Assembly: GCA_018302335.1 (NCBI GenBank)
Contig: JAGVZT010000047.1
Coordinates: 1-61,042 of the forward strand
Direction of reading: 5' to 3'
DNA length: 61,042 nucleotides
Origin: Candidatus Woesearchaeota archaeon
GTDB taxonomy: Archaea > Nanobdellota > Nanobdellia > Woesearchaeales > JAGVZT01
Shown piece by piece: positions 1,674 to 58,794 of the stretch. Every line of letters starts with the position of its first letter. Position 1 is the stretch's first letter. The notes beneath the pieces were generated by a model. It was given only the letters and a program-made list of their open reading frames with translations. It was not told the DNA's origin and searched no databases. The translations under genes and the position numbers were made by a program.

Positions 1674-1731
1674 CGGCCGCAGTCCTCAGCGTATCCGGCA
1701 TGCCGGCGGAACACGTCCGGCATTCCGACCG
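1674..1731 (-). repeat. CGGCCG-bounded intergenic repeat, copy A (short variant, reverse orientation)
   Basis: CGGCCGCAGTCCTCAGCGTATCCGGCATGCCGGCGGAACACGTCCGGCATTCCGACCG. Lies between convergent genes. Shares the GCATTCCG-CCG terminus and TATCCGGCAT block with other copies. Confidence 0.65.
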
Positions 1732-1755
1732 AGAGACTAGAGTTTCACAGCTGCG

Positions 1756-2535
1756 CTAGAGGTCCCCATACAGGCGGCGCCCGTCCGGGAGCCTGCCCTG
1801 CTTCGCGTGGGCCAGAGTGTCGCGCAGCTCAGGCTCGTCCATGTCCAGCGAGCCTGCGTGCAGGTCTTCCATGAGCCGCCAATCGATATAGCTCTGCTCT
1901 CCCGGGAGCATGAGGGAGTATGAGCGGAGCAGCGCCACGGGCTTCTCTGCCATGAGGTTGCTCGCGTTGCGGAGGTGGAGGCTACGCTCGACGACGCGGG
2001 AAAGGGCTCCCATCTCGGTGAACGCATTGCGCACATACGCCGCGGTGGACTCCATCTCCTCCTTGCCTGGATGGAGGATTCCTGACATCAGCTCTGCCCC
2101 CAGACCCCAGATTCCCATGGCGAGCCCGATGGGGGCCAGCGGAGGCACCACGATGAGACCCGCTCCGCCGACTGCGGCACCGAACCCGCCGGCAAACATG
2201 TAGTTGCTGGCGCGCGCCCGGAACTGGATGTCGAAGGACCAGACAAGTTCCTCCGAAGAGTAGCTAGGGTAGGTCCCCATGGCCCCCAAGGTCTCCGAGA
2301 ACTCCTCCATCTCTGCCATGTACTGCTTGGCGTTCTTGTACCAACGGAGCAGCCTGAGGAAGGTCTTGCCCGTGGGCATCAGGGCATCGTACTGCTCGGC
2401 AAGCTCCACGGCCCGTCCGGCGGTGGACGCCCTGCCGTGGAAAGTGTCCCGGAGGAGCGTATGCCTCTCCAAGACTGGTTCGAGGGCAGCGCGCTCGCGG
2501 ACGATGCGCGCCTCGAGATTGTGCGTGTCCCCCAT
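1756..2535 (-). CDS. Hypothetical protein with a Gly/Ala-rich hydrophobic core segment
   Basis: The track ORF is 1756..2661, but its first 42 codons read through repeat copy B. The ATG at 2535 lies 21-32 nt from a TATA box. Hydrophobic segment: FAGGFGAAVGGAGLIVVPPLAPIGLAMGIWGLGAELM. No family recognised. Confidence 0.55.
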   Translation of the reverse strand: MGDTHNLEARIVRERAALEPVLERHTLLRDTFHGRASTAGRAVELAEQYDALMPTGKTFLRLLRWYKNAKQYMAEMEEFSETLGAMGTYPSYSSEELVWSFDIQFRARASNYMFAGGFGAAVGGAGLIVVPPLAPIGLAMGIWGLGAELMSGILHPGKEEMESTAAYVRNAFTEMGALSRVVERSLHLRNASNLMAEKPVALLRSYSLMLPGEQSYIDWRLMEDLHAGSLDMDEPELRDTLAHAKQGRLPDGRRLYGDL

Positions 2536-2555
2536 GGTCCCGGGGGGTGGGCGGG

Positions 2556-2567
2556 CCAATAAAAAGC
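2556..2567 (-). promoter_or_regulatory. TATA box for the 1756..2535 gene
   Basis: Forward CCAATAAAAAGC, reverse complement GCTTTTTATTGG; 21 nt upstream of ATG 2535. Confidence 0.5.
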
Positions 2568-2601
2568 TTCGCTCGGAGCCACGGAAGCTGAGAGGGCGAA
2601 T

Positions 2602-2669
2602 CGGCCGCCCTGCGGAGAATGCCCGCCCTTCCGGTGGGGCAGCCCGGAACTCATGCGGCATTGCGGCCG
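2602..2669 (-). repeat. CGGCCG-bounded intergenic repeat, copy B (68 bp)
   Basis: CGGCCGCCCTGCGGAGAATGCCCGCCCTTCCGGTGGGGCAGCCCGGAACTCATGCGGCATTGCGGCCG. Aligns with the reverse complement of copy L over its whole length. Confidence 0.8.
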
Positions 2670-2675
2670 GGTCGT

Positions 2676-3287
2676 TCAGAGCACGACCATCAGCGCAAGG
2701 CTCCCGAGGAAGAGCGCTGCGAACGCGCGCTTGTCCCAGAGGAGCACCTTGAGTCCGTCGAAGCTCCCGAAGGGCAGCATGTTGAAGAACGCCAGGAAGA
2801 TGTTGACCGAGGCGCCGTAGGCCAGGAGGGATGCGGCCGGTAAGAAAACGGCGAGAGCGGAGAAGAGCAGCGCCAGCGCGATGTTCACCAGCGGACCTGC
2901 GGCGGCGATGCGCCCGCTCTTCTGGTACGTCACCGCGCCAGAGATGAACACCGCTCCTGGAGCGGCGAACAGGAATCCCAGGAAGGAGGAGAACACCGCG
3001 ATGAGCAGCATGGTGTCGAAGCTCTTGAAGCGCGCGACACAGCCGTAGCGCTGCGCGACGAACTTGTGGCCGAGTTCGTGCAGCACGAAGCCGATGCCGA
3101 CCGTCACCGCAGCGGTGCCCATCGCGCGGAGCAGCTCACCGGGAGACGCGGTGAAGAGGCGCGTTCCCCCAAGGAGCAGCACCGCGAACGCGAAGCTTAT
3201 CGCAGCCCATGCCTTGGCGATGTCCCGCAATTCTTCCCGGGTGAAGGTCTGGAAGTCCACGCGGCAGCGAGGCATCGCCGCCTTCAA
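2676..3287 (-). CDS. Site-2 protease family (M50) intramembrane zinc metalloprotease
   Basis: HExxH in FVLHELGHKFVAQRYG. Second conserved motif FFNMLPFGSFDG (NxxPxxxxDG). Several TM segments. The track start is TTG at 3287; the first ATG is at 3275. Confidence 0.8.
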   Translation of the reverse strand: MKAAMPRCRVDFQTFTREELRDIAKAWAAISFAFAVLLLGGTRLFTASPGELLRAMGTAAVTVGIGFVLHELGHKFVAQRYGCVARFKSFDTMLLIAVFSSFLGFLFAAPGAVFISGAVTYQKSGRIAAAGPLVNIALALLFSALAVFLPAASLLAYGASVNIFLAFFNMLPFGSFDGLKVLLWDKRAFAALFLGSLALMVVL

Positions 3288-3342
3288 AAGGGTTCCGGTC
3301 GAAGGAGAACGCTGGAATAATTATCCATTCTGCAGTGATAAA

Positions 3343-3353
3343 ATTTATATAAT
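3343..3353 (+). promoter_or_regulatory. TATA box in an AT-rich divergent spacer
   Basis: ATTTATATAAT, 21 nt upstream of ATG 3375. A second AT box, AATAATTAT (3317-3325), faces the M50 gene. Confidence 0.55.
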
Positions 3354-3374
3354 ATTTTACCTAACCTCAGGTAT

Positions 3375-3578
3375 ATGGCACATCCGTATGAAGGCCGGGA
3401 CGCGTACGCTCCACGCGATGCGGAGCCATCCTATCGTCCCCTTTTTGCCGTGCGGAAGCCGACCATCGTGCTCGGCAAGCCAACCCTCGACCAGAAAGTC
3501 CGTGAGGCGCTCGAATCTCTCGGCCTCGCCCCCCGCGAACGGGTTCCGGTGCGCGTTCCTGCACGTCCCAAGCGCTGA
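3375..3578 (+). CDS. Small hypothetical protein (67 aa)
   Basis: The ORF starts at leaderless distance from a strong TATA box. Codon composition matches its neighbours. No homology recognised. Confidence 0.35.
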   Translation: MAHPYEGRDAYAPRDAEPSYRPLFAVRKPTIVLGKPTLDQKVREALESLGLAPRERVPVRVPARPKR

Positions 3579-3579
3579 G

Positions 3580-4473
3580 CTACGCTCCCAAGGCTATCAC
3601 TGCGCCTCCGCCGACAATGAGCGCCGTCGCCAGCCCCTTCTGGAGCAGTTGTCCCGTGGTGTGCGACTCGTTCAGCACCGTCGGCGCCACGACCGACACT
3701 CCCGTGGCGATGAGGAGGATGTACAGCGGTTCTATCGCTCCCAGGGCGGCGACATAGCTGACCTGCGTCAGGCTCGCCGCGACGAGATGGGTCATGATGG
3801 CGAGGAGCGAGATGCTCTCATTCCCCATGACCAGGAGGATGGTGCGGTTCCTGATGATGTCCGAGAATACCTGGCGGGTGCCTTTGCCCAGCAGGAGCAG
3901 GGAGAGCACCAGCCCGTAGGTGATGAACTGCACCGAGAAGACATTCCAGTAGCTCAGGGAGCGCAGAGCCCATTTCTCCACGACGGCCTGCGCGCCGAAG
4001 AGCACGGCGGCGAGGACCACGAGCCACGCGGCTGGAGAGAACGAGAGCTTTCCGAGGTCCTTCACCGATATCAGGAAGGCTCCGGCGATCATGGCGAGCG
4101 TCGCCAGGTAAAAATGCCCGGAGAAGGAGGCGCCGAGCAAGAGCGTCTCCAGCACCGCGGCGACCACCGCGAGCAGGTAGAGCAGCGGAATCACGCGGGA
4201 GACCTCCTCCTTCTGGAGCGCGGCCAGGTAGACCACCACCGCAGCGGCGAAGAGCAGGCCGCCGCCGACCGCAGGCAGCAGCGCGCGCGGCTCCATCGTC
4301 TCCAGGGGATAGGCCAGCAGGAGGATAATCGCGTAGAGCCCGAGAGCGGCGCCGCTCGCGACCGCGAATGCGAACGGGCTCCTGATGCGCTTGTCAATCA
4401 GGAACTTGTCGACCGTCGCGACGAGCGCGAAGAAGAACGGGGAGAGCAGGGCGAAGACAATCCAACTGGCCAC
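3580..4473 (-). CDS. EamA/DMT-superfamily transporter
   Basis: 297 aa with about 10 hydrophobic helices in a two-half EamA-like layout. GTG start lies 22-33 nt from a TATA box. Confidence 0.75.
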   Translation of the reverse strand: MASWIVFALLSPFFFALVATVDKFLIDKRIRSPFAFAVASGAALGLYAIILLLAYPLETMEPRALLPAVGGGLLFAAAVVVYLAALQKEEVSRVIPLLYLLAVVAAVLETLLLGASFSGHFYLATLAMIAGAFLISVKDLGKLSFSPAAWLVVLAAVLFGAQAVVEKWALRSLSYWNVFSVQFITYGLVLSLLLLGKGTRQVFSDIIRNRTILLVMGNESISLLAIMTHLVAASLTQVSYVAALGAIEPLYILLIATGVSVVAPTVLNESHTTGQLLQKGLATALIVGGGAVIALGA

Positions 4474-4494
4474 GATGCGGTGGGGGACCGCAGG

Positions 4495-4506
4495 CTTAAA
4501 AATATG
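4495..4506 (-). promoter_or_regulatory. TATA box for the EamA transporter gene
   Basis: Forward CTTAAAAATATG, reverse complement CATATTTTTAAG; 22 nt upstream of GTG 4473. Confidence 0.5.
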
Positions 4507-4524
4507 CGCGTGGCAGACGTCCCC

Positions 4525-4588
4525 CGGCCGGAATGCCGCGCGAGGTCTGCGCTGTCTCGCAGGGCGGACATTCTCCGCAACGCGGCCG
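4525..4588 (+). repeat. CGGCCG-bounded intergenic repeat, copy C (64 bp)
   Basis: CGGCCGGAATGCCGCGCGAGGTCTGCGCTGTCTCGCAGGGCGGACATTCTCCGCAACGCGGCCG. The first 20 nt are identical to copy L. Confidence 0.85.
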
Positions 4589-4627
4589 AAGAAACTGAGG
4601 GTCTCTCTGGAGCCTCAGCACGCGCAA

Positions 4628-4638
4628 TCTATAAATAG
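4628..4638 (+). promoter_or_regulatory. TATA box for ppdK
   Basis: TCTATAAATAG, 32 nt upstream of ATG 4670. Confidence 0.6.
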
Positions 4639-4669
4639 TCCGTCCCCGGCTGGAGCGTGGGGTGATTCC

Positions 4670-7231
<2,562 letters not shown>

Positions 7232-7363: not shown

Positions 7364-8218
7364 ATGGTCCTGTTCAACGAGACTCTGGGCAGCGGCCTGG
7401 CGGAGATTTCCAACTCCAGCGCCGCGGCCTTCGCCCTTGATTACGGCAGGCAGCTGCCATCTCTCGCGCTGCAGGGCAACTTTTTCGCGCTCGTGTTGGT
7501 GTGCATCTTCGGATGGGTGCTCATGGTCGTCCTCAACAAGCTCACCGGGGTGCTGCTGCAGCTCATCCGGCACACGTTCGTGTTCATCATCACCGGCTTC
7601 GGGGCGCTGTTCTTCTTCCTGGAGTTCCGGAGGCGTCTTGCCGGCGGCCTGACCACCGAGACGCTGGTGTTCGGCGCCCTCGGCCTGGCGGTGAGTGTCG
7701 TCGGGCTGCTCTTCGCGGTCTATGCCGTCGTCATGAAGGTAAGGGAGGCGCGTTCTCCCTGGCCCAAGCGGAGCTACGACCAGGCCAACGCCCTGCCGGT
7801 GGAGATGCCGGAGGAGCCTGAGCCGCCGAGGAACCTCGGAGAGTTCAGCGACATCTTCACCAACGTCAAGGACACGAGCCTGTTCTCGGCGCTGGCCTTC
7901 ATGGTGGTGGGGCAGTTTGGGGTGTTCAGCACCGAGACCTTCTCCGCCCCCACCGCGATGACCGGGTTCATCTTCCTTGTCGCATTCCTCATCGCCGCAA
8001 TGGTCTTCATCCGGCAGAGCTACAAGCGTTACATGCTCGGGGTGACCCATCTTATCGTGACGTTCGTGGTCGGTGTGATTCTCTCCATCTTCCTCGGCTC
8101 TGCCTGGGCGCAGTTGCCCTTGACCACCCTGCTCTCGGGTGCATACTTCACCACATCTTCCCTCGTCGCGCTCATCAGCGGGATGGCGCTTTCCATCTTC
8201 GCGGGAAGCAAGACCTGA
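7364..8218 (+). CDS. Integral membrane protein, function unknown
   Basis: 284 aa with multiple hydrophobic helices and a central acidic loop (PVEMPEEPEPPRNLGEF). Promoter lies at leaderless distance. Confidence 0.6.
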   Translation: MVLFNETLGSGLAEISNSSAAAFALDYGRQLPSLALQGNFFALVLVCIFGWVLMVVLNKLTGVLLQLIRHTFVFIITGFGALFFFLEFRRRLAGGLTTETLVFGALGLAVSVVGLLFAVYAVVMKVREARSPWPKRSYDQANALPVEMPEEPEPPRNLGEFSDIFTNVKDTSLFSALAFMVVGQFGVFSTETFSAPTAMTGFIFLVAFLIAAMVFIRQSYKRYMLGVTHLIVTFVVGVILSIFLGSAWAQLPLTTLLSGAYFTTSSLVALISGMALSIFAGSKT

Positions 8219-8237
8219 GGACGCATCCTGAGGGCCC

Positions 8238-8305
8238 CGGCCGCAATGCGGCAGGATATCCGCGTGGTCTCGCCGGCATACCGATGATTCTCCCCAGCGC
8301 GGCCG
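8238..8305. repeat. CGGCCG-bounded intergenic repeat, copy E (68 bp, both arms resemble the GGATAT arm)
   Basis: CGGCCGCAATGCGGCAGGATATCCGCGTGGTCTCGCCGGCATACCGATGATTCTCCCCAGCGCGGCCG. Confidence 0.75.
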
Positions 8306-8347
8306 GCCATGTGCCCGGGCATTTCTCTACGGCCGGCGCGACGAAAG

Positions 8348-8358
8348 CCTTATAAAAG
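8348..8358 (+). promoter_or_regulatory. TATA box
   Basis: CCTTATAAAAG, 21 nt upstream of ATG 8379. Confidence 0.6.
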
Positions 8359-8378
8359 TGGTTCCCCAGCGGAAAGGC

Positions 8379-9359
8379 ATGACTCTCCTGCTGGAGTTGC
8401 TCTTCTTCGTGCTGGCATGCGTGGTGCTGGTGAAGAGCGCCGGCATCATCGTCAATCACCTGACGCGTATCTCCTCCTTTCTCGGGCTGAACGAGTTCGC
8501 GATAGGGTTCATCATCATGGCCATCTCGACCACCCTGCCCGAACTCTTCATCGGCATCACCTCCGGGCTCCGGAAGGACACCGCCATCGCCCTCGGCACG
8601 GTCATCGGGAGCAACATCGCGGACCTCACCATCATCATCGGCGTGGTGGTCCTGGTCACGAAAAGCATCCGCATCCGGAGCCATATCATCCGGCGCGACC
8701 TCGTGTACATGCTCTTCATCCTCGTCCTGCCCATCCTGCTCATGCTCTGGCCGCCGACGTGGCTCAACGGCGCGCCAACGGAGGCCACCCTCTCCAGGGC
8801 CGAGGGGCTGCTGCTCATCCTCGTCTTCGTGTTCTACCTGTACATGACCATCCGACAGGAGCATTCCTTCCACAAGGAGATCCACCGCGCCTCCAGGCAC
8901 GAGGCCATGTCGAGCTTCCTGGTCACCGCGCTCATGGCCGGCGCCCTCTTCGGGAGCTCCCACTTCGTGGTGAAGCACGGCCTGGTCATCTCGGCCGCGC
9001 TCAATGTGCCTCCGATTCTCGTCGGCATCTTCCTCATCGCCCTGGGCACCTCGCTTCCCGAGCTGAGCTTCCAGCTCAAGGCGGTGAAAGGGAAGCACGA
9101 GGAGATGGCGCTCGGTGACCTCATCGGGGCGGTCATCGTCAATTCGACCCTCGTGCTGGGCATCACCGCGCTCATCTCCCCCATCCATGCCAACTTCTTC
9201 ATCTTCTTCACCAGCGCGATGTTCATGGTGGTCATCGCCTTCATCTTCCTCACCTTCGCGGAGTCCGACGGTGGCCTGAACTGGAAGGAGGGCATCTCCC
9301 TCGTGATGCTCTACGTCTTCTTCGTCATCGTGGAGAGCTACATCAAGACCCTGCAGTGA
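8379..9359 (+). CDS. Ca2+/cation antiporter (CaCA family, Na+/Ca2+ exchanger-like)
   Basis: Alpha-repeat motifs GTVIGSNIADLTIIIG and GTSLPELSF / GDLIGAVIVNSTLVLG, with about 10 TM helices. The track GTG at 8358 overlaps the TATA box, so the ATG at 8379 is preferred. Confidence 0.85.
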   Translation: MTLLLELLFFVLACVVLVKSAGIIVNHLTRISSFLGLNEFAIGFIIMAISTTLPELFIGITSGLRKDTAIALGTVIGSNIADLTIIIGVVVLVTKSIRIRSHIIRRDLVYMLFILVLPILLMLWPPTWLNGAPTEATLSRAEGLLLILVFVFYLYMTIRQEHSFHKEIHRASRHEAMSSFLVTALMAGALFGSSHFVVKHGLVISAALNVPPILVGIFLIALGTSLPELSFQLKAVKGKHEEMALGDLIGAVIVNSTLVLGITALISPIHANFFIFFTSAMFMVVIAFIFLTFAESDGGLNWKEGISLVMLYVFFVIVESYIKTLQ

Positions 9360-15888: not shown

Positions 15889-15959
15889 CGGCCGCAATGG
15901 CGTCCGTTCTCCGCGCTGTCTCGCTGCTCTCGGTGCGAGCAAACGCTTAAGAGCGGCCG
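15889..15959 (+). repeat. CGGCCG-bounded intergenic repeat, copy F (71 bp, divergent right arm)
   Basis: CGGCCGCAATGGCGTCCGTTCTCCGCGCTGTCTCGCTGCTCTCGGTGCGAGCAAACGCTTAAGAGCGGCCG. Retains the central GCTGTCTCGC core. Confidence 0.65.
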
Positions 15960-22156: not shown

Positions 22157-22843
22157 ATGCATAAGAAGCCAGCTTCGTTCCCTTGGGCCATGGGGACCCT
22201 CTTCGACATCTGCCGTTCAGAATTCGAGCGTCTCAGGCCGCTGTACGAGGAGCAGTGCGGCGTGGACCTCTCCGAGGTGCGGTTCCTCAATCCAAGGGAA
22301 TTCGCCAGCCAGAGCATCCGGAATGAGAATATCCTGCCGCTCAAGGGGGTGAAGGCCCTCACGTCTGCGTACTGCACCGCGAGCTACCCCGCATGGTACG
22401 ACGCAGGCCTGCCCGCCATCACGGTCAATGAGCGCGTGCTGCAGAAGCGTGACATGCCTCCAGCGTACGCCGTCGCGCACGAGCTCGGCCATGCGACCCA
22501 GGAGGCGAGGGCTCACCTGGACCCGAATTTCTACGGCAGTCTCTGGACCAAGGCAGCGAAGCGCGGCCTTCAGGAAGTCCGCGGCCTGCGTGACGCTCTT
22601 GACCTGGTGACGGAGGCGGGAGAATTCTTCGGGGAGGTCACCAAGGTACAGCAGATTCTCCTGGAGGGCGGCGCCATCGCGCTCCAGAGCGATTATCTCA
22701 CCGGGCTCGACACGGCGCTCGCGGAGCACACCGCAGACGTGCGCGAAGCCCTGCTGGACAGCGCCATCTGGCTGCCCTTCCGGAAACCCGCTCTCTCGAT
22801 GGAGGAGATAGGGAATCCCGCGGCGTATCTGGGGCGGGCCTGA
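22157..22843 (+). CDS. Putative zinc metalloprotease-like protein (HELGH motif), family unknown
   Basis: AYAVAHELGHATQEA. Start ambiguous: ATG 22157, or ATG 22190, which lies 22 nt downstream of CATAATGCATAAG (22153-22165). Confidence 0.5.
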   Translation: MHKKPASFPWAMGTLFDICRSEFERLRPLYEEQCGVDLSEVRFLNPREFASQSIRNENILPLKGVKALTSAYCTASYPAWYDAGLPAITVNERVLQKRDMPPAYAVAHELGHATQEARAHLDPNFYGSLWTKAAKRGLQEVRGLRDALDLVTEAGEFFGEVTKVQQILLEGGAIALQSDYLTGLDTALAEHTADVREALLDSAIWLPFRKPALSMEEIGNPAAYLGRA

Positions 22844-36058: not shown

Positions 36059-36115
36059 GCCCCCTGCGCCTGAAGCGGCTTCTTATGCTTTGCGCCGTGC
36101 TCACGTACCGGGAGT

Positions 36116-36176
36116 CGGCCGCGCTGCGGAGCATATCCGGGATTCCGGCGCCGAGGATTGTACGACTTTCCGGCCG
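36116..36176 (-). repeat. CGGCCG-bounded intergenic repeat, copy M (61 bp)
   Basis: CGGCCGCGCTGCGGAGCATATCCGGGATTCCGGCGCCGAGGATTGTACGACTTTCCGGCCG. Confidence 0.75.
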
Positions 36177-36185
36177 AGAGACGGT

Positions 36186-37550
36186 CTATTTTCCGCTGAG
36201 TCCCCACGGCCGAGCCGAGGAGAAATCAAGTTTCGCTTCCGTCACAGCGGTGAGCTGCTCCTGCGTCACTCCCTGAGCGAGCTCTCTCACGAGAAGGGGT
36301 TTTCCCGGCCGCACCTCGAGGACCGCCATCTCGGTGATGATGAGGCTCGCTGCGCGCACCGCCGTGAGGGGATAGGTGCATCGCCTGAGTATCTTGGGCG
36401 CGCCCTTGAGGGTGTGCCGCATGGTCACGATGAGGCGCTTCGCCCCTGCGGCAAGGTCCATGGCCCCTCCCATGCCCGGGCCCAGCCTCCCCGGGATGCT
36501 CCAGCTCGCAAGATTCCCCTCCTGGTCCACCTGCAGGGCGCCAAGGATGGTGACATCGACATGGCCACCGCGAATCATCCCGAAGGAGTCCGCGCTGTCG
36601 AACACCGAGCCGCCTGCCTGCACACTGACGTAATGCCTGCCTGCGTCGATGAGGCCGTGGTCGATGTCCTCCCTGCGCTTCGGCGGGGGCCCCATGCCGA
36701 GGATGCCGTTCTCGGACTGGACCCACACCCGGATGCCTTTCGGGAGAAAGCCCACCACCTGCGTCGGGATGCCGACGCCGAGATTCACCACGTCGCCATC
36801 GCGGAGCTCCATCGTGGCGCGGGCGGCGATGCGCCCCGCTGCCTCGTCGAGCTCCTCGGCATGCTGGGGCCAGATGCCCTCGGCGCAGACCGCGGCCTGC
36901 ACGACATAGTCCACGAAACAGTGCGGGACGTGGACCTCCTCCGGGTCCAGCGGCGCCTTCTGGATGACCTCCGCTTCCGCGATGGTGATGTCCGCGGCGC
37001 GCGCCACCGCGATGTTGAAATTGCGCTCGATGCCCCGGAAGTGCAGGTTTCCGAGCGTGTCGGCCTTCCACGCCTTCACCAGGGCGTATTTCGCGCGCAG
37101 GGGCTTCTCGAGGACATATTCCTTGCCATCGATGACCCTGCTCTCCTTGCCCTTCGCCGCTTCTGTTCCTGCCCCCGTCCGGGTGAAGAAGCCTCCAAGG
37201 CCATAGCCTCCCGCGCGGATGCGCTCGATGAGGGTGCCTTGCGGGATGAACTCCACTGCCATCCTGCCTGCATCGGCCAGTTCCTTCACCCGGTCGACCA
37301 CTTTGGGATTGGTCCCGAGGAAGGAGAGCGCGAGCCTTCGCACCTGTCCTGCGGCGATGAGGAGGTTTGGGCCCTTGTCCGGAGTGACGGGGTCGTTGAT
37401 GGTGAGCGCGAGGTCCTTGATGCCGCGCTCGTGCAGGGCGTGCAGCAGGGTGTCCGGCCTGCCGAAGTCGTAGAACCCCGAGACGAGGATGCTGTCGCCG
37501 TCGCGGAAGAGAGCGATCACCTCGGCAAGCTCTTTCACCATGGCGACCAT
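36186..37550 (-). CDS. 3-oxoacid/acyl-CoA:acetate CoA-transferase, fused A and B subunits
   Basis: Subunit-A-like N-terminal half (DGDSILVSGF..., GGYGLGGFFTRTGAGT). Subunit-B-like half has the catalytic-Glu motif VWVQSENGILGMGP. The ATG at 37550 is 21 nt from a TATA box; the track extension to 37670 reads through copy N. Confidence 0.87.
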   Translation of the reverse strand: MVAMVKELAEVIALFRDGDSILVSGFYDFGRPDTLLHALHERGIKDLALTINDPVTPDKGPNLLIAAGQVRRLALSFLGTNPKVVDRVKELADAGRMAVEFIPQGTLIERIRAGGYGLGGFFTRTGAGTEAAKGKESRVIDGKEYVLEKPLRAKYALVKAWKADTLGNLHFRGIERNFNIAVARAADITIAEAEVIQKAPLDPEEVHVPHCFVDYVVQAAVCAEGIWPQHAEELDEAAGRIAARATMELRDGDVVNLGVGIPTQVVGFLPKGIRVWVQSENGILGMGPPPKRREDIDHGLIDAGRHYVSVQAGGSVFDSADSFGMIRGGHVDVTILGALQVDQEGNLASWSIPGRLGPGMGGAMDLAAGAKRLIVTMRHTLKGAPKILRRCTYPLTAVRAASLIITEMAVLEVRPGKPLLVRELAQGVTQEQLTAVTEAKLDFSSARPWGLSGK

Positions 37551-37570
37551 GTCCTTTCCCGGGAAAAGCC

Positions 37571-37581
37571 CCTTTAATAAT
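37571..37581 (-). promoter_or_regulatory. TATA box for the CoA-transferase gene
   Basis: Forward CCTTTAATAAT, reverse complement ATTATTAAAGG; 21 nt upstream of ATG 37550. Confidence 0.55.
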
Positions 37582-37610
37582 CTGTCCTCTAGAGAATATC
37601 TCGCGGACCT

Positions 37611-37678
37611 CGGCCGGAATCCCGTACGAGTTTCTGGCTGACTCGCCGGAATGGCGGATATTCTCAGCAATGCGTCCG
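37611..37678 (+). repeat. CGGCCG-bounded intergenic repeat, copy N (68 bp)
   Basis: CGGCCGGAATCCCGTACGAGTTTCTGGCTGACTCGCCGGAATGGCGGATATTCTCAGCAATGCGTCCG. 58/68 identical to copy L (hand alignment). Confidence 0.88.
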
Positions 37679-37711
37679 ACTGCGGACTCTTTCTATGGAG
37701 CTATGCGTGAG

Positions 37712-38887: not shown

Positions 38888-39982
38888 ATGACATACCACG
38901 TGACGCTGATCACCGGAGACGGCACCGGACCTGAGCTTGCGCAGCAGATACGCCGCTGCGTGGACGCCACGGGCGTCGACATCGCGTGGGACCCGCAGGA
39001 GGCGGGCGTCGATGTCTACGCGCGCGAGGGCACTCCGCTTCCCCAGCGCGTGCTGGATTCTGTCCGGAAGAACAAGGTGGCAATCAAGGCTCCCATCACC
39101 ACCCCGGTCGGCACGGGATTCCGCAGCGTCAATGTCGCGCTGCGGAAGGAGCTGGACCTCTACCAGTGCATCCGGCCGGTGAAGTCCTACAAGGGCGTCC
39201 GCTCGAGGTTCGAGAACATCGACCTGGTCATCTTCCGAGAGAACACGGATGACCTGTACGTCGGAGTCGAGTTCGAGCAGGCGAAGCCGGAGACGCTGGA
39301 GCTCATCCTCAAGATTCAGGAGCTGAACTCGGACGGGAAGGTCATCCGGCAGGACTCCGGGCTGAGCATCAAGCCGATAAGCATCTTCCGCACCGAGCGC
39401 ATCGTCAGGGCCGCGTTCGAGTACGCGCGCTCGCACGGCCGGAAGAAGGTCACCGCGGTGCACAAGGCCAACATCATGAAATTCACCGACGGCCTTTTCC
39501 TCGCGACCGCGCGCGAGGTCGCGAAGCGGTACCCGGACATCGCGTTCGAGGACCGCATCGTGGACAACATGTGCATGCAGCTGGTCCAGAAGCCGGAGCT
39601 GTACGATGTCTTAGTGCTTCCCAACCTCTACGGCGACATCATCAGCGACCTCTGCGCCGGGCTCATCGGCGGGCTGGGCATCGCCCCAGGAGCGAACATC
39701 GGGGACAAGTACGCGGTGTTCGAGGCCGTGCACGGCAGCGCGCCGAAGTACGCGGGGATGAACAAGGTCAATCCCACCGCGGTCATCCTCTCCGCGGTGC
39801 TCATGCTGGAGCATCTGGGCGAGAAGGACGCGGCGCGCAGGCTGGAGTCCGCGGTCGCCGGGGTCATCGCGGAAGGAAAGCGCGTCACCTACGATCTCAA
39901 GCAGGACCGGGACGACCCCACTGCAGTGGGGACGAAGGAGATGGCCGACGCCATCATCGCCAGGCTGCGGAAGACTCGGTAG
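38888..39982 (+). CDS. icd: Isocitrate dehydrogenase (short IDH3-like member of the isocitrate/isopropylmalate dehydrogenase family)
   Basis: [70 protein letters not shown] lies 6 nt upstream of the ATG, 9 nt after the citrate synthase stop. Specificity (isocitrate vs homoisocitrate/IPM) cannot be proven by eye. Confidence 0.78.
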
Positions 39983-42318: not shown

Positions 42319-42378
42319 CGGTCGTGCAGGCTGCGGACGGTCTGGCTGGAATCCCGGAGATTCTCAGCATCAGGGCCG
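42319..42378 (+). repeat. CGGCCG-bounded intergenic repeat, copy Q (60 bp, degenerate left arm)
   Basis: CGGTCGTGCAGGCTGCGGACGGTCTGGCTGGAATCCCGGAGATTCTCAGCATCAGGGCCG. Confidence 0.65.
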
Positions 42379-42441: not shown

Positions 42442-43065
42442 ATGGATCTCGCAGACATACTTCGCGAAGGCACCAAGGACGCCCACCGCAGGACGGAGAG
42501 GGGGGTGCCGCTGCGCGCGGTGAAACGGTTTCTTTCACGCGAGGTGTACAGCAGCTATCTCCGCGACCTGCATGACGTCTACGAAGCGCTTGAATCCGGG
42601 CTTGAGCAAGCGCAGCATCCCTTGGTGGCGCCTCTCCGCATCCCCGAGCTCTACCGGACGCATGCCCTCGAAGAAGACCTCCTTTACTTCTGCGGCGCAG
42701 GGTGGGCGACAGCGCAGGTGAGTCCCGCTGGCGCTGCCTACCGGTCGCGCCTCGAGGAGCTGGCATCGCAGCAGCCGGAACTGCTTGTCTCGCACGCCTA
42801 TGTCCGCTATCTCGGGGACCTGTTCGGCGGGCAGGTCATCCGGAAAATCATCCGCGCGGCCCTGCAACTGCCGAAGGGAGAAGGCACTGCGTTCTACGAA
42901 TTTCCTCTTGGCATCAAAGAGGGGCGCGACTCCGTCCGGAGCGCCCTCAACGCCCTTCCCGTGGACGAAGCCATGTCCCAGCGGCTCGTCGCGGAGGCGA
43001 ACTACGCTTTCGAGCTCACCGGTGCGATTTTCCGAGAGCTTGCCAACGCCGGGACTGGGATTTGA
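42442..43065 (+). CDS. Heme oxygenase (canonical HO-1/HmuO family)
   Basis: Proximal-His region LREGTKDAHRRTE and distal-helix motif YLGDLFGGQVIRKI, both close to HO-1 signatures. 207 aa. The last 19 nt overlap the tRNA-Ser gene on the opposite strand. Confidence 0.85.
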   Translation: MDLADILREGTKDAHRRTERGVPLRAVKRFLSREVYSSYLRDLHDVYEALESGLEQAQHPLVAPLRIPELYRTHALEEDLLYFCGAGWATAQVSPAGAAYRSRLEELASQQPELLVSHAYVRYLGDLFGGQVIRKIIRAALQLPKGEGTAFYEFPLGIKEGRDSVRSALNALPVDEAMSQRLVAEANYAFELTGAIFRELANAGTGI

Positions 43066-43130
43066 ACCCAGAAATCCTTGCGGAAACAGGATTTCCAGTC
43101 CTGCGCACTACCAGGTTATGCGATCCCGGC
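43047..43130 (-). tRNA. tRNA-Ser (anticodon GGA), class II with a long variable arm; no encoded CCA, no intron
   Basis: Reverse complement: GCCGGGA-TC-GCAT-AACCTGGTA-GTGC-G-CAGGA-CTGGAAA-TCCTG-TTTCCGCAAGGATTT-CTGGG-TTCAAAT-CCCAG-TCCCGGC-G. 7-bp acceptor stem, 5-bp anticodon and T stems. Confidence 0.85.
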
Positions 43131-43158
43131 ACGAATCAGGACGGCGGGGGAACGTGGC

Positions 43159-43172: not shown

Positions 43173-43619
43173 TCAGTCCCAGAGGCCGCGGGTCACCCCA
43201 CGGCGGCGCCACTGCTCCAGCGCTTGGGGACAGACGATGTTGACGCGCAGCCCATAGGCGTCGCTGACCTCGGCCGCCGCCCGCTCGAGCCTGGCAGGTA
43301 CGAAACCCTCGCGGAGGAACACGTAGACATTCCCGGAATACTGGCGGCCGCGGGACTGCTCAAGACGGACAGCCTCAGCAATGCGACCGAGCTGTTCGGT
43401 GTACTCCGAAGGCCTCTTCTTCCCGGTGAACGCCTCGATGACCGTGCCATCGCGAGTCACGATGTCGAAATCAGTCAGCTCGCTGCCGTCCTCCCGGTAG
43501 ATGATGCGATGCACATCCTGCACGGCAGGCTCGCCCACGAAGCCGCGCACCGCCTCTTCCAGAGAAGAGCGTTCCTGCTGCTGCACACCCCTGCGGTCTA
43601 GCAGGGTCCCCAGGTCCAT
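43173..43619 (-). CDS. Hypothetical protein (148 aa)
   Basis: Coding-like composition. ATG is 19 nt from a TATA box. The segment TDFDIVTRDGTVIEAFTGKK is faintly reminiscent of a PD-(D/E)xK core, but it is not convincing. Confidence 0.5.
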   Translation of the reverse strand: MDLGTLLDRRGVQQQERSSLEEAVRGFVGEPAVQDVHRIIYREDGSELTDFDIVTRDGTVIEAFTGKKRPSEYTEQLGRIAEAVRLEQSRGRQYSGNVYVFLREGFVPARLERAAAEVSDAYGLRVNIVCPQALEQWRRRGVTRGLWD

Positions 43620-48293: not shown

Positions 48294-48770
48294 ATGCCTT
48301 CCCTCCGCAGCCCTCTCCTTGAAGAGGCTGAGCGCGGGCTCTCGGCGGCAATCGACACTCTTCTGGAGAGATACGCGGTGGAGCCTCGCCTACCCAGGCC
48401 GGAGGTGTACCTGGACATGAAGGCACGCACCTCTCGGTACGAGCCGCGGAGCAACACCGTGGCGTACGCGAACGGCGCCATCTCCCGATGGACGCACGGG
48501 GAGGAGGCCGGGCACTGGCTTTACTATGCGGTGAATCCCGACCTGGACATCGTGGGATTCGACCCGAGCTCTGATGACCTCGGCCTTCGCGCGCTGCACG
48601 AGCTCATGGGGCGATACGCCGCGAATATCGTGACGCAAGGCGAGCCGGCCGCGCTGACCGGCGACTACTCGCACTACGATGAGGAGCACCGCGCTGGCTA
48701 CCTCGCTGCAGACAGCATCTGGCGCGGTAAACGAACCCCCACTCCCTTCCGGCATGGGGAACTCACTTGA
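48294..48770 (+). CDS. Hypothetical protein (158 aa)
   Basis: Coding-like composition. No family recognised; HGEEAGH is not a true HExxH motif. Confidence 0.5.
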   Translation: MPSLRSPLLEEAERGLSAAIDTLLERYAVEPRLPRPEVYLDMKARTSRYEPRSNTVAYANGAISRWTHGEEAGHWLYYAVNPDLDIVGFDPSSDDLGLRALHELMGRYAANIVTQGEPAALTGDYSHYDEEHRAGYLAADSIWRGKRTPTPFRHGELT

Positions 48771-49254
48771 GGAGCTGGTGGAGCAGCGCATCGGGGACGC
48801 AAAGGAGAACGACATCGCGAACAAGGCGGCGTGCGTCGCCAGCGTGCTCGGCAAGGTTGTGAAACCTCGGGAAGGTTATGATGGATATCAGGCAACCTAC
48901 CAGGGAAAGGGTTGGAGTGCGGTGCTCACGACGTCGTCCACCTCTGTTGTCTGCGAGGGAAGACTGCTCATTGCCCTTCTTGAGGGAAAGCAGGAAAGCA
49001 CCGTATTCGAGGCAAAGGGGACTGTTGACCTCACACCGAACGACTCGACTGCCGTGCTCCGCAGGAAGGCAGGCATGACGGAGGACACCCGGCTGTTCGG
49101 GTCGTTCCGGGAAGACAGATATGACGTCACTGCATACCGGCCGGGCGAGTGGGAGGCTGCGCTTGATATGCTCTACAAGGAGGCGCAGCAGCTGCGCGCA
49201 GACCAGGACGAGAAAATCCTCCTTGAGGTCAGGGAGCGCTTCGGCCTGCAATAA
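48754..49254 (+). CDS. Hypothetical protein (166 aa)
   Basis: Internal ATG of track ORF 48679..49254, overlapping the previous gene by 17 nt. No family recognised. Confidence 0.45.
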   Translation: MGNSLEELVEQRIGDAKENDIANKAACVASVLGKVVKPREGYDGYQATYQGKGWSAVLTTSSTSVVCEGRLLIALLEGKQESTVFEAKGTVDLTPNDSTAVLRRKAGMTEDTRLFGSFREDRYDVTAYRPGEWEAALDMLYKEAQQLRADQDEKILLEVRERFGLQ

Positions 49255-49310
49255 GGATAAATACTCCCTCACTGTCCCAGCCGCAGGCGCACTGCGCCGG
49301 GGTGTTATTC

Positions 49311-49766
49311 ATGGATAAGGATTGCTGTTCGGACAATTGCTGCTCGGACTGGGCCTACAAGATTCACATCCTGCTCCTCGGCCTGGTGATGCTTGTCCCG
49401 GGACTGATGAAACTCTTCGTCATGAAGCCGGCAAACGTGGCGGGTTTCCTCGGGGGTCTGGGCATTCCCGCCCCGAATGTGCTGGTGTGGGTGCTCATCG
49501 CTTCGGAGATAGGGAGCGGCGCGGCCATCCTCGCCTCGCTCGTCCTGAAAGGCATGCCGCTGAAGTACGTCGCATGGCTGCCCGTCGTCGTGCTCGTGGT
49601 CGCAGCAGCGACCGCGCTGAAGCCCTACGGCCAGAACTCCTCGAACATCCTGCTGCATCTCATCGCGGCGAGCGACTTCGCGCTGCTGGCGTTGTGGAAC
49701 TGCGGCACGGAGCCCGCGCCCAAGGCTCCGATGGCGAAGCTGGCTGTGAAAGGCGCGAAGAAGTAG
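49311..49766 (+). CDS. DoxX-family membrane protein
   Basis: Four hydrophobic helices (KIHILLLGLVMLVPGLMKLF...). Cys-rich N-terminus MDKDCCSDNCCSD. The track GTG start is at 49302. Confidence 0.65.
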   Translation: MDKDCCSDNCCSDWAYKIHILLLGLVMLVPGLMKLFVMKPANVAGFLGGLGIPAPNVLVWVLIASEIGSGAAILASLVLKGMPLKYVAWLPVVVLVVAAATALKPYGQNSSNILLHLIAASDFALLALWNCGTEPAPKAPMAKLAVKGAKK

Positions 49767-54466: not shown

Positions 54467-54487
54467 TTATGATTTAACCATCGCGCT

Positions 54488-55667: not shown

Positions 55668-55689
55668 TCCGTAAACCCGCTGCCTCCGC

Positions 55690-57396
55690 ATGGACGAGCT
55701 CGCCCGCTTCGGCCGGCCGATGCGGATGGACCTGAAGCCGAAGAAGCCGATTCTCGCGCCCACCGGCCCGAAGACCTGCGCGACCTGGGATGCCGAGGCT
55801 GCGATGCGGATGCTGATGAACAACCTTCATCCGCAGGTCGCGCTGGACTGGGAGCAGCTGGTCGTCTACGGCGGCTCCGGGCGCGCCGCGCGGAACTGGC
55901 AAGCGTATCACGACATCATCGTGTCGCTGAAGAAGCTGAAGGCGGATGAGACCCTCTGCGTCCAGAGCGGGAAGCCGGTGTACGTCGCGCGGACCTTCGA
56001 GCACGCCCCGCGCGTGGTCATCGCGAACAGCAACCTCGTCCCAAAGTGGGCCACCCCGGAGAACTTCTCCCGGCTCGATATGCTGGGACTGACGATGTAC
56101 GGCCAGATGACCGCAGGCTCGTGGATCTACATCGGCACCCAGGGCATCCTGCAAGGGACCTACGAGACGCTGAGCGCGTGCGCGAAGCGCGAGTTCAGAA
56201 CAGACTCCCTGAAAGGGAAGTTCCTCCTCAGCGCAGGGATGGGTGCGATGTCCGGCGCACAACCCCTTGCGGCGTCGATGTGCCACGCCGCCGCGCTCAT
56301 CGTCGAGGCGCGCAAGGAGCGCATCGGGCGAAAGGTCAAGGAAGGGTACTGCGACCGCATGACGGAGTCGCTGGACGAGGGGCTTGCCTGGGTGCTGGAC
56401 GCGAAGCAGCGCAAAGAGGGGCTGAGCGTGGGCCTTGTGGGCAATGCTGCCGAAGTCCATCCGGAACTGGTGCGCAGGAACATCATCCCCGATGTGGTGA
56501 CGGACCAGACCAGCGCCCACGACCTGCTGAGCTACGTTCCCGAGGGGGATATCCCGGAGCTCGACGCCCTGCGCGTCCAGAATCCCGAAGCATACCGCGC
56601 GCGTTCCCTGGCCTCCGTGCGGAAGCATGTCGCCGCGATGCTGGCGATGCAGGCGCGCGGCGCGGTGTGCTTCGACTACGGCAACAACCTGCGCCAGCAG
56701 GCCGAACTCGCGGGCCTCCGGGTGCGCGATGGCCGGGGAACATACCTCTATGATGGCTTCGTCCCGCGCTACATCAGGCCGCTCTTCTGCGAGGGCAAGG
56801 GCCCCTTCCGGTGGGCCGCTCTCTCCGGCAGCGTGGAGGATATCCGGCGGATGGACGAGAGGCTGCTGAAGCTGTTCCCGAAAGACCGGGCGCTGGCGCG
56901 CTGGATCCGGCTCGCATCGGAAAAGGTGCCGCAGCTCGGCCTCCCCTCGAGGATATGCTGGCTCGCGTACGGCGACCGCGCGACGTTCGGCCTGGCCATC
57001 AACGACATGGTCCGCTCGAAAGAGCTCGGGGCTCCGGTGGTCATCGGCCGGGACCATCTCGATTGCGGCTCCGTCGCATCGCCCGAGCGCGAGACCGAGG
57101 GGATGGCCGACGGCAGCGACGCCATCGCGGACTGGCCCCTGCTGAACTTCGCGCTCAACACCGCAGCGGGCGCGTCCTGGGTGAGCTTCCATCATGGCGG
57201 AGGAGTCGGCATCGGGAATTCGCTCCACGCGGGGATGGTCATTGTCGCGGATGGCAGCGCGAAACGCGCCGAGCGTCTTGAACGCGTTCTCACCGTGGAC
57301 CCAGGCATCGGGGTCGCGCGCCATGCGGACGCGGGCTATCCCGAGGCGCTTCGCGCCGCGCGCAAGGGGGTGCGCATCCCGGGCAAGATTTCTTAA
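55690..57396 (+). CDS. hutU: Urocanate hydratase
   Basis: 568 aa. [71 protein letters not shown]. Confidence 0.93.
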
Positions 57397-57420
57397 AGAG
57401 CGGCTGGTTCCTTTGAGGGG

Positions 57421-58185
57421 ATGCTGCTCCTGACCAACGACGACGGCTACCGCGCCAGGGGATTGCGCGCACTTGCGGATGCGGTTCAGAACCTGGACGA
57501 CCTCGTCATCGTCGCCCCGCTCGGCAACCGCAGCGGCATCGGGCACACGATTTCCTTCAAGGAAGTGCGCGTGCAGCAACGTCTCTACGCGGGCAGGGAG
57601 ATGCTCACCCTGAGCAGCAGCCCCTCGGACTGCGCCTCCTACGGCCTTGAGGCGCTGCTCCCCCGGCCGGAATACGTGCTCTCCGGGGTGAACCGCGGCA
57701 CCAATTCCGGGATGAGCCTCTACATGTCCGGCACCATCGCTGCGGCGAGGCAGGCCGCTATCCTGGGGGTTCCTGGCATCGCGGTGTCCGCAGCGGGATT
57801 CGAGGACCCGGATTACGACCTTGCGGCCGCGTTCGGCCGGGAGTTCTTCCTCTGGCTGCGCGCCGCCCAGGTCGAAGGATGCTACTTCAACCTTGTCGCT
57901 CCGAAGAAAAACCTGCCACGTCAGGGTGTCGCGGTCACCAGGCCCTCGCTCGACAAGGACCTGCGCTCGCGTTGGGAACTCCAGCCCTCAGGCAAGTACC
58001 TGCACCGCACGGAATGGCTTCCCTCGACAGAGAGGTGGAGCGACCAGTGGGCCCTGGACCGCGGCTATCTCACCCTGACGGTGAACACCCTCGACCGGGA
58101 CTGCGCCCGCGCCGAGGCGCTCGAGGAGCGCATCTTCTCCGAGTTCAGGTTCGCAGGGCTGCCCACCGTTCTGCCGGCTCCGTAG
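57421..58185 (+). CDS. surE: 5'/3'-nucleotidase SurE
   Basis: MLLLTNDDGYRARGLRALA, GVNRGTNSG, SGTIAAARQAA. Confidence 0.9.
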   Translation: MLLLTNDDGYRARGLRALADAVQNLDDLVIVAPLGNRSGIGHTISFKEVRVQQRLYAGREMLTLSSSPSDCASYGLEALLPRPEYVLSGVNRGTNSGMSLYMSGTIAAARQAAILGVPGIAVSAAGFEDPDYDLAAAFGREFFLWLRAAQVEGCYFNLVAPKKNLPRQGVAVTRPSLDKDLRSRWELQPSGKYLHRTEWLPSTERWSDQWALDRGYLTLTVNTLDRDCARAEALEERIFSEFRFAGLPTVLPAP

Positions 58186-58195
58186 GAAGAGTCGT

Positions 58196-58263
58196 CGGCC
58201 ATGCTGCTCAGAAGTACCGGCATGCCGGCAGGACCTTCCGGAACTTGTGCGGCCTGGCGGCCG
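58196..58263 (-). repeat. CGGCCG-bounded intergenic repeat, copy R (68 bp)
   Basis: CGGCCATGCTGCTCAGAAGTACCGGCATGCCGGCAGGACCTTCCGGAACTTGTGCGGCCTGGCGGCCG. Confidence 0.7.
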
Positions 58264-58288
58264 GATTTTCAAAGTCCCCGCGACCGAA

Positions 58289-58303
58289 GGATATATAATA
58301 AGG
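58289..58303 (+). promoter_or_regulatory. TATA box
   Basis: GGATATATAATAAGG, 19 nt upstream of ATG 58322. Confidence 0.6.
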
Positions 58304-58321
58304 CATCTCGCCGCAGGCTGC

Positions 58322-58729
58322 ATGGCAAAGTTCAAGCCCACGATGGAGATGCCCCACGCGAAAATCCTCATCGTGGACGACTCCTCATTCACCCGGGAGC
58401 TGGTCTCGAAGATGCTTGTCCAGGCGGGATTCTCGAAGCCCCTGGAGGCGGAGAGCGCGGGCAGCGCTCTGGGCGCGGTCAAGGCGAACAAGCCGGACCT
58501 GCTCATCCTGGACATCGACCTCGGAGGGGAGCTGGACGGCGTCGATGTCCTCCGCGCGGTGAAGAGGGACACTCCCGCGGTGAAGGTCATCGTGCTCTCC
58601 GCGCTGTCGCAGCGCCTGCTCGAGGAGAAGCTCATGGAGGAGCAGGCCGATGCATTCATCGTCAAGCCCTTCCGGCAGGAGCAGCTCCTCTTCGCGGTGG
58701 GCCTCGCGCTCGGCTACGACGTGATGTAG
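58322..58729 (+). CDS. Stand-alone response-regulator receiver domain (CheY-like)
   Basis: KILIVDDSSFTR, phospho-acceptor context DLLILDIDLGG, VIVLSAL, FIVKPF. 135 aa. Confidence 0.85.
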   Translation: MAKFKPTMEMPHAKILIVDDSSFTRELVSKMLVQAGFSKPLEAESAGSALGAVKANKPDLLILDIDLGGELDGVDVLRAVKRDTPAVKVIVLSALSQRLLEEKLMEEQADAFIVKPFRQEQLLFAVGLALGYDVM

Positions 58730-58732
58730 AGG

Positions 58733-58794
58733 CGGCCGCATTGCGGAGGATATCGGGGTTTTGATGAGACGGATAATGTACGGCACTGCAGCCG
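58733..58794 (-). repeat. CGGCCG-bounded intergenic repeat, copy S (62 bp, divergent distal half)
   Basis: CGGCCGCATTGCGGAGGATATCGGGGTTTTGATGAGACGGATAATGTACGGCACTGCAGCCG. Confidence 0.6.

Follow-up and report, generated by a model that had tools for sequence, protein, structure and literature searches.

A family of 68-bp GC-rich repeats in the intergenic spacers of a woesearchaeal genome

The DNA analysed here, the window, is a contig of 61,042 nt (JAGVZT010000047.1) from a Candidatus Woesearchaeota archaeon, and its intergenic spacers carry 20 copies of a GC-rich repeat built on a core of 68 bp. The GC content is 61–68% across the whole window, which codes for archaeal informational proteins (EF-1alpha, GatD/GatE, ribosomal proteins S7 and S10) and for enzymes of central metabolism (PPDK, pyruvate:ferredoxin oxidoreductase (POR), citrate synthase, isocitrate dehydrogenase and urocanase). 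Exact-protein look-ups assign it to a near-clonal population (99.6–99.9% identical) that has been assembled from a number of soil and groundwater metagenomes, the 'ANAN16' set of the Rifle aquifer among them; contigs of this population include ERZ27254754 k141_2077961 and ANAN16-1_SAMN03842431 scaffolds 3463 and 3624, and the closest named relatives of its EF-1alpha are Woesearchaeota/Nanoarchaeota metagenome-assembled genomes (MAGs) at 75–77% identity. Start codons are preceded about 25 nt upstream by TATA-like boxes, as expected with leaderless transcripts. The copies are listed below with their profile scores, the strand being that of the reference orientation.

1674..1731, minus strand: copy with an internal deletion of about 10 nt, between convergent genes, 8 nt past the NAD-synthase stop; 21.2 bits
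2602..2669, minus strand: full 68-bp copy, 6 nt past the stop of 2676-3275 (minus strand), TATA-like TTTTTATT 36 nt beyond; 59.2 bits
4525..4588, plus strand: 64-bp copy of the subfamily with a 4-nt deletion, between the divergent promoters of an EamA-like gene and PPDK; 53.1 bits
7235..7300, minus strand: copy 3 nt past the PPDK stop, TATA 32 nt beyond; 46.9 bits
8238..8305, plus strand: full copy, 19 nt past the stop of 7364-8218 (plus strand), TATA 43 nt beyond; 58.6 bits
15889..15924, plus strand: left-half fragment of 36 nt, model positions 4-39; 15.2 bits
22076..22138, minus strand: 63-bp copy whose terminus overlaps the GatE stop codon (TAGGCCG); 51.8 bits
23867..23933, minus strand: copy 14 nt past the stop of a thiolase-like gene, an exception in lying >100 nt from the next TATA; 53.5 bits
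25562..25628, plus strand: copy 6 nt past a stop, TATA 37 nt beyond; 53.4 bits
27471..27538, plus strand: full copy, 8 nt past a stop, TTTTC tract 11 nt and TATA 40 nt beyond; 53.6 bits
30628..30695, plus strand: full copy, 23 nt past the stop of the POR beta subunit, TATA 33 nt beyond; 60.7 bits
33653..33720, plus strand: best copy, which sets the reference orientation, between divergent promoters; 72.3 bits, 91% identical to copy 41742
36116..36176, minus strand: copy with a 7-nt deletion, 9 nt past the coenzyme A (CoA)-transferase stop, absent from strain contig L003; 35.5 bits
37611..37678, plus strand: full copy between the divergent TATA boxes of the CoA-transferase and citrate-synthase genes, absent from L003; 64.5 bits
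39999..40066, plus strand: full copy, 16 nt past the isocitrate-dehydrogenase stop, T5 tract 14 nt and TATA 40 nt beyond; 57.0 bits
41742..41809, minus strand: full copy, 8 nt past the stop of a NUDIX gene, TATA 34 nt beyond; 70.2 bits
42322..42380, plus strand: copy without left terminus, in a divergent promoter region, model positions 15-73; 28.5 bits
46234..46273, minus strand: left-half fragment upstream of EF-1alpha, in a divergent region; 12.8 bits
58196..58263, minus strand: full copy, 10 nt past the SurE stop, TTTTC 3 nt and TATA 27 nt beyond; 52.2 bits
58733..58794, minus strand: 62-bp copy, 3 nt past a stop, TTTTCTGCC 9 nt and TATA 30 nt beyond; 23.5 bits

The repeat and the extent of its unit

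A profile built from 14 copies and searched back over the window by nhmmer recovered all 20 positions listed by a first-pass annotation of the window, 18 of them at 21–72 bits (E 1e-5 to 1e-21); those at 15889 (15 bits) and 46204/46234 (13 bits) are half-length fragments, and the copy at 42319 is without its left terminus. The family is plain from the sequences at the 20 coordinates, a repeat finder also clusters the window copies, in both orientations, and a member of the family stands at every annotated position. The conserved 3' block TTCTCNGCANNGCGGCCG, with at most two mismatches, occurs 17 times in the window, compared with 0.66 ± 0.81 times in 100 dinucleotide shuffles. Nine copies are exactly 68 bp long (2602, 8238, 27471, 30628, 33653, 37611, 39999, 41742 and 58196), the same count as before, and an earlier hand alignment that matched copy 33653 to the reverse complement of copy 41742 at 62 of 68 positions agrees with the 91% identity that we obtain over 70 nt. 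The copies had been described as non-coding, and indeed none lies inside a confident gene of the window; gene callers run open reading frames (ORFs) through the repeats, and annotation is affected as a result. Across the whole window at gathering thresholds, Rfam matched none of the copies, a tRNA-Ser(GGA) at 43046-43131 (minus strand) being the sole Rfam or ARAGORN match; nor was any copy matched by Rfam at E<=5 across 9 kb that hold six of them. A full-text literature search for the terminal 12-mers returned cloning primers only, which, together with the Rfam result, is consistent with the previous statement that this is not a described family.

Scanning public metagenome contigs with a specific gapped pattern gave 118 loci, 42 of which (286 kb, GC 0.53-0.66) hold 86 further copies at E<1e-4, or about 1 per 3.3 kb, the remaining loci being chance matches to the pattern; 78 distinct copies are left when identical sequences are removed. 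This density, and the occupation of half of the promoter-bearing spacers described below, suggests several hundred copies per genome. A scan of reference genomes with CGGCCGNNNTGC-N40-46-GCANNGCGGCCG proved too loose, the matches listed being chance occurrences in GC-rich bacteria, and is uninformative on distribution. A viral link was likewise dropped: two pattern matches in viral contigs are due to chance, and these contigs contain no copies. About 50 kb of contigs from syntenic relatives (EF-1alpha 81% identical, GC 0.50-0.53), in which the spacers are tight, also hold no copy.

In an alignment of 68 copies, the repeat is resolved as an oriented core of 68 bp (consensus CGGCCGCAATGCCGCACGAGTTCCGGGTTGTCTCGCCGGAATGCCGGATATTCTCCGCAATGCGGCCG) that ends in an imperfect terminal inverted repeat of about 12–13 bp, (T)CGGCCGCAATGC. 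Eleven of the 12 outer consensus positions are complementary, 88.9% of the cells pair in the 11 terminal pairs, and the termini read CGGCCG in more than 90% of the copies. Conserved columns do exist beyond these ends: the best-conserved are the two CGGCCG termini and the adjoining ..ATGC and GCA..GC blocks, with TGTCTC and ATTCT intermediate. The unit had been called imperfectly palindromic, a description that holds for the inverted termini and fails for the interior; the three conserved blocks that were noted with it are real. Compared with its reverse complement, the consensus agrees at no more than 36 of 68 positions, which are almost confined to the outer 12, and copies that score 47–72 bits on the forward strand score 5–9 bits on the reverse; the element is oriented, not palindromic. 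Inside the core the direct motif G[CG]AATGC[CG]G occurs three times, at positions 6, 38 and 57. Pairwise identity averages 67%, with a median of 82% to the nearest neighbour and values up to 91–99%, and subfamilies can be recognised by common indels or diagnostic blocks (four bases missing after GCAGG; carriers of GTGATTCTCAGCAGCG; carriers of GGTCTCGCCGGCATACCGATGATTC). Many copies are truncated or have internal deletions.

The sequence on either side of the core would allow an alternative to the 68-bp core, in which arms of 20 nt extend the unit to about 108 bp. A weak purine/A tract, with the best match GCAGAAAAC, lies on both flanks 11–20 nt outside the core; 15% of the arms and 2.9% of controls match it at no fewer than 7 of 9 positions, a 5-fold enrichment; more loosely, a weak RGAAA(A)/TTTTCY arm can be seen at this distance on about 15–40% of flanks, and a conserved YCT lies directly left of the core. 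Besides this enrichment, two indels that separate the window from a strain contig, described below, argue for the longer unit. Against it stand the lengths of co-directional spacers (median 140 nt with the element and 76 nt in element-free promoter-bearing spacers, which differ by nearly the 68 bp of the core), the most similar copies from separate loci, whose flanks are unrelated and whose similarity ends at or a few bases from the CGGCCG ends, and the stop codons only 3–23 nt from the core. On the exit strand the GCAGAAAAC-like tract reads as a T3–T5 tract, and such a tract occurs 3–20 nt past the core in about half of the window's co-directional cases. Oligo-T tracts are the usual terminator signal of archaea. 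Four repeat-free genes (8232-9359, 43173-43619, 49227-49766 and 58824-59720) have T5–T7 directly past the stop (TGAttttttt, TGAaagctttttt), a pattern that fits oligo-T termination with very short 3' untranslated regions (UTRs); because element-free genes end in this way, the tracts beyond the cores may be native terminators, or else belong to a longer, faster-evolving form of the element. A generic scan for hairpins followed by T tracts found 11 sites against 10 ± 3 expected, which is no enrichment, and two of these sites use an element terminus together with the adjacent arm.

Placement between genes and promoters

Using the database's own gene calls on 51.8 kb of a sibling contig, we find a copy at 11 of 38 co-directional junctions. 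Nineteen of the 38 are operon-tight (<40 nt), and the copies therefore occupy 11 of the 19 co-directional spacers of at least 40 nt, with eight promoter-bearing spacers of that size empty. Copies are also present in four of eight divergent spacers and at none of eight convergent junctions, just three of which are roomy; the window itself adds one convergent case, the copy at 1674. About half of all promoter-bearing spacers are occupied. In co-directional pairs the core begins a median of 7 nt (range -3 to 51) past the upstream stop codon, an adjacency at the core's other end that the first-pass annotation had missed and that is repeated in the larger metagenome sample, and in 10 of the 11 cases it ends 52–72 nt before the downstream start codon. 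The orientation is random, as had been noted: relative to the upstream gene, 7 copies are sense and 8 antisense in the window, and about 22 and 23 over all loci.

The distance to the TATA box, in contrast, is regular. An AT-rich octamer lies within 100 nt at 90 (57%) of 157 non-redundant flanks of window and metagenome copies and at 13.5% of random positions; in 53 of these 90 (59%) its distance from the core edge is 25–39 nt, with a mode at 30–34 nt. The regularity first noticed in the window is thus borne out on a set that includes independent metagenome copies, and is by itself no proof of function, since compact spacers combined with selection or a target preference can produce such spacing.

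Pairing tests and strain differences

The long imperfect hairpin into which each unit had been proposed to fold, and with it the suggested structured-RNA module, found no support. RNAalifold applied to the alignment returned only a 4-bp CGGC/GCCG terminal stem. Four explicit structures were compared with a control in which the 3' partners were shuffled among copies: the minimum-energy fold of the consensus (78.0% pairing observed, 78.5% shuffled), the terminal stem with a first, mis-registered inner stem (74.7 and 73.8%), the terminal stem with a TTCCGG/CCGGAA inner stem (81.0 and 80.8%), and three mini-hairpins (80.5 and 81.6%). None showed compensatory change in excess of the shuffled partners, and the three mini-hairpins had zero compensatory changes and pairing below the shuffled level; the covariation for which the annotation had proposed a check is therefore absent from all four. 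Single copies fold weakly on either strand, with z = -0.9 to -1.7 relative to dinucleotide shuffles. With no covariation, weak single-copy folding and no Rfam match, a structured RNA is not supported, and since the pairing is no better than after shuffling, the pairing potential is that of the terminal inverted repeat in the ancestral consensus and has not been kept copy by copy.

Copies do differ in presence between strains. Strain contig L003 is 97–99% identical to the window on either side of the CoA-transferase gene, whose alleles are only 76.5% identical; neither of the copies next to this gene in the window is present in L003 (window 36098-37702 set against L003:2162-3552). In the divergent spacer between the CoA-transferase and citrate-synthase genes the difference is a clean 110-bp indel, made up of 17 nt, the 68-nt core and 25 nt, and both TATA boxes are kept in L003, just 21 nt apart; the boxes are therefore not parts of the element, and the promoters work without it. 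On the other side of the gene, 106 bp are absent from L003, where the gene is 12 codons longer and overlaps the start of the next, while the ORF in the window stops at a TAG just outside the core. The locus looks like an allelic replacement whose ends coincide with two repeat copies.

Further breakpoints fall at the termini of copies. Between L167:1052-1125 and L156:8393-8466 the cores differ by one mismatch, the right flanks are identical and the left flanks unrelated, the break lying exactly at the left terminus of the core; this could be a rearrangement, a recent copy with a carried-along flank, or an assembly chimera. Upstream of the methionyl-tRNA synthetase (MetRS) gene, about 150 nt past the window's right end, there are two haplotypes (L255:13740-13940 and L256:13740-14092), one with an extra 63-aa ORF; both carry a copy, the two being about 84% identical, with 100% identity regained within the core's last 11 nt. 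A third contig, L257, has Illumina adapter sequence (AGATCGGAAGAGCGTCGTGTAGGG) in the MetRS spacer, an assembly artefact. The coincidence of haplotype breakpoints with element ends bears on strain-level recombination, and metagenome assembly is affected as well, several contigs ending at copies.

Three short segments carried by sibling assemblies are missing from the window and may be either strain deletions or assembly differences: 90 nt at 48728/48729, where a 171-aa gene loses its 3' end and stop and part of the next TATA is gone; 108 nt, in frame, at 22764/22765 inside a 253-aa gene; and about 67 nt inside PPDK at 5771/5772. The isocitrate dehydrogenase at 38888-39982 has its closest, unnamed matches at 76–79% identity, and its named homologues, at about 73–75%, come from Omnitrophota and Planctomycetota MAGs, a pattern that suggests horizontal transfer between bacteria and the archaeon.

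Origin of the family and comparison with known repeats

[quoted passage not shown] Among the possibilities that the first-pass annotation had left side by side, this one fits best and structured RNA is without support. An enzyme encoded elsewhere in the genome would recognise the ends, and would have copied the unit into hundreds of spacers. In a compact genome with leaderless transcripts, copies might then survive only where 68 additional bases are tolerated, in a narrow slot just past the upstream stop and at least 25 nt upstream of the next B recognition element (BRE)/TATA, or between two divergent TATA boxes. One could alternatively suppose that insertion is drawn to the AT-rich patches that TATA boxes offer in DNA of 64% GC; the regular spacing of 25–39 nt would follow by either route. 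In co-directional pairs the core would probably be transcribed within the 3' UTR of the upstream gene.

Several observations weigh against a mobile family. The window encodes no transposase, as had been reported, and no integrase or Y1/RAYT domain, and no Y1/RAYT transposase was found in the fetched contigs either. An IS6-like transposase (L206:5659-6540) and a DDE_Tnp_1 transposase (L173:3112-4293) do occur in low-GC islands of repeat-bearing contigs, and were rejected as parent insertion sequences (ISs) because the ends of these elements, which in the DDE_Tnp_1 element form a 33-bp inverted repeat, GTACCCCAACTTTGACAG..., are unlike the repeat termini. Target-site duplications of 2–8 bp at offsets 0–2 show no excess over permuted flanks (68 copies), and none is seen at the two filled/empty sites; if the target were itself a palindromic CGGCCG, however, it could not be told apart from the inverted repeat. 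With neither a duplication nor a cognate transposase found, strict membership among the MITEs is unproven. The two indels measure 106–110 bp and not 68 bp, and weak arms are seen on a part of the flanks, so that the mobile unit may extend past the core. Contigs around four window genes have the same arrangement, apart from L003 and the adapter-contaminated L257; L003 excepted, they reveal no insertion polymorphism among the near-clonal sampled strains and thus give no sign of ongoing transposition. Finally, the sharp TATA peak and the high occupancy of promoter-bearing spacers, set against none of three roomy convergent ones, could also be explained by a host function, which keeps such readings alive.

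One of these, which we regard as rather doubtful, is a host-selected element of promoter architecture, perhaps a co-opted mobile ancestor, that would serve as a platform bound by a chromatin or regulatory protein, or as an insulator just upstream of BRE/TATA that keeps neighbouring transcription units apart. It would account for the octamers on 57% of the 157 flanks, 59% of them at 25–39 nt, for the occupation of 11 of 19 co-directional, 4 of 8 divergent and 0 of 3 roomy convergent spacers, and for the three direct G[CG]AATGC[CG]G motifs; the convergent contrast, however, rests on three spacers (p about 0.09), and the spacing varies by about 15 nt with no helical phasing, copy 23867 lying more than 100 nt from any TATA. 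Random orientation, the many truncated or internally deleted copies and a mean identity of only 67% are hard to reconcile with such a role, as are the natural L003 allele, in which both promoters are intact without the two copies, and the related genomes that do without the family. There is a small chance that the family has been taken over as a regular component of promoters in this compact, leaderless genome: an orientation-independent GC-rich block, 25–39 nt upstream of the TATA box, that insulates promoters at about half of the transcription-unit boundaries. Such a block would, on this minor possibility, bind an abundant protein or absorb supercoiling, thereby insulating the promoter from a gene that ends a few bases upstream. 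If co-option is borne out, the copies would provide a rare case, for archaeal transcription, of a genome-wide cis-element.

REP, ERIC and SPRITE elements of bacteria act in 3' UTRs as terminators or mRNA protectors, and by analogy the repeat might be an RNA module in which a hairpin and a T tract end transcription or shield the upstream mRNA from 3' exonucleases. The start of the core a median of 7 nt past the stop, the T3–T5 tracts and 5-fold enriched GCAGAAAAC-like tracts outside it, the T tracts that end element-free genes, and the two terminator-like matches that combine an element terminus with its arm would all suit this function. We nevertheless judge it unlikely in view of the pairing tests (no covariation in four folds, four pairs by RNAalifold, z of -0.9 to -1.7) and the lack of enrichment of terminator-like sites (11 against 10 ± 3). 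Moreover, 5 of the 20 window copies lie in spacers with divergent promoters, which contain no gene end; of the window's convergent junctions, about 8 in all, a single one has a copy; and archaeal termination is known to depend on oligo-T and not on hairpins. Movement as single-stranded DNA by a Y1 transposase (RAYT or IS200/IS605-like), as for REP/REPIN elements, would leave no target-site duplication, in agreement with what we observe; it would also suit the high copy number confined to extragenic DNA and the palindromic GC-rich ends, and the conserved YCT just left of the core could serve as a target tetranucleotide such as IS200/IS605 elements employ. A 68-bp unit with only 12 bp of symmetry, no conserved hairpin in either half, no GTAG or CGTC tag and no Y1 transposase in the window or the examined contigs make this route quite improbable. 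An analogy with integron attC sites, in which the copies would be sites where a cassette system recombines and would mark the 3' end of each exchangeable gene, is one to which we attach very little probability: imperfect palindromes of attC-like length do stand directly past stop codons, and two variable segments (the CoA-transferase allele and the 63-aa ORF haplotype) end at elements, but RYYYAAC/GTTRRRY core sites are missing, no integrase was found in the window, orientation is random with respect to the gene, the flanked housekeeping genes have their own promoters, and copies also lie between divergent promoters.

Compared with known systems, the mobile family that we favour stands nearest in behaviour to the MITE/REP-class repeats of bacteria, among them Correia, ERIC, SPRITE and REP/REPIN, and to the few archaeal MITEs. 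MITEs are defined as short (<500 bp) non-coding units (PMC10969869), with terminal inverted repeats of about 4–30 bp and, in young copies at least, flanking direct repeats. Like the Correia/NEMIS elements of Neisseria and SM1-SM4 of Sulfolobus solfataricus, the repeat is short, non-coding (68 bp, with no ORF in the core), bounded by terminal inverted repeats and dispersed in both orientations, and it lies between genes, frequently directly upstream of one, forming subfamilies and including decayed members (PMC10969869); copies also differ in presence between strains. In contrast to these elements it stands at the small extreme with 68 bp, is GC-rich and not AT-rich, has no flanking direct repeats from target duplication, and has no parent IS with matching ends in the window or among the two ISs of the repeat-bearing contigs. 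MITEs generally favour AT-rich spacers, and the few described in archaea are from Sulfolobus, Halobacterium and Haloquadratum, the families cited reaching only tens of copies per genome (PMC10969869).

With the REP, BIME and REPIN sequences of Proteobacteria the family shares GC-richness, an extragenic location often just past stops, high copy number, restriction to one lineage and the lack of target duplication (PMC2817692, PMC3116915, PMC3733652). REPs, however, are 20–40-bp stem-loops tagged GTAG or CGTC, and REPINs are near-perfect long hairpins (PMC2817692, PMC3116915, PMC3733652), whereas the symmetry of the present unit is confined to its outer 12 bp, its interior has an orientation, and we find no self-folding 20–40-bp unit, no GTAG/CGTC head, and no RAYT in the window or the fetched contigs. 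ERIC/IRU, SPRITE, BOX and RUP are likewise small imperfect palindromes in transcribed spacers, some with terminator-like ends or altering mRNA stability in 3' UTRs (PMC10969869, PMC3184786); they are bacterial, 100–130 bp or modular, extensively self-complementary, and without sequence similarity to the archaeal repeat. Integron attC (59-base) sites resemble it as imperfect palindromes of similar length, directly past stops, with conserved ends and a variable centre, and differ from it in their R''/R' core sites, fixed orientation, integrase and promoterless cassettes; here the ends read CGGCCG, and sense and antisense copies stand at 7:8 in the window and at about 22:23 over all loci.

The small dispersed repeats of bacteria are well studied, those of archaea poorly described, and the present family is a natural test of the amount of additional DNA that promoter regions of archaea tolerate. 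While the kind of element is itself familiar, what sets the family apart is that it is very small, GC-rich and, with about one copy in 3.3 kb, far denser than SM1-SM4 with their 25–44 copies per genome (PMC10969869).

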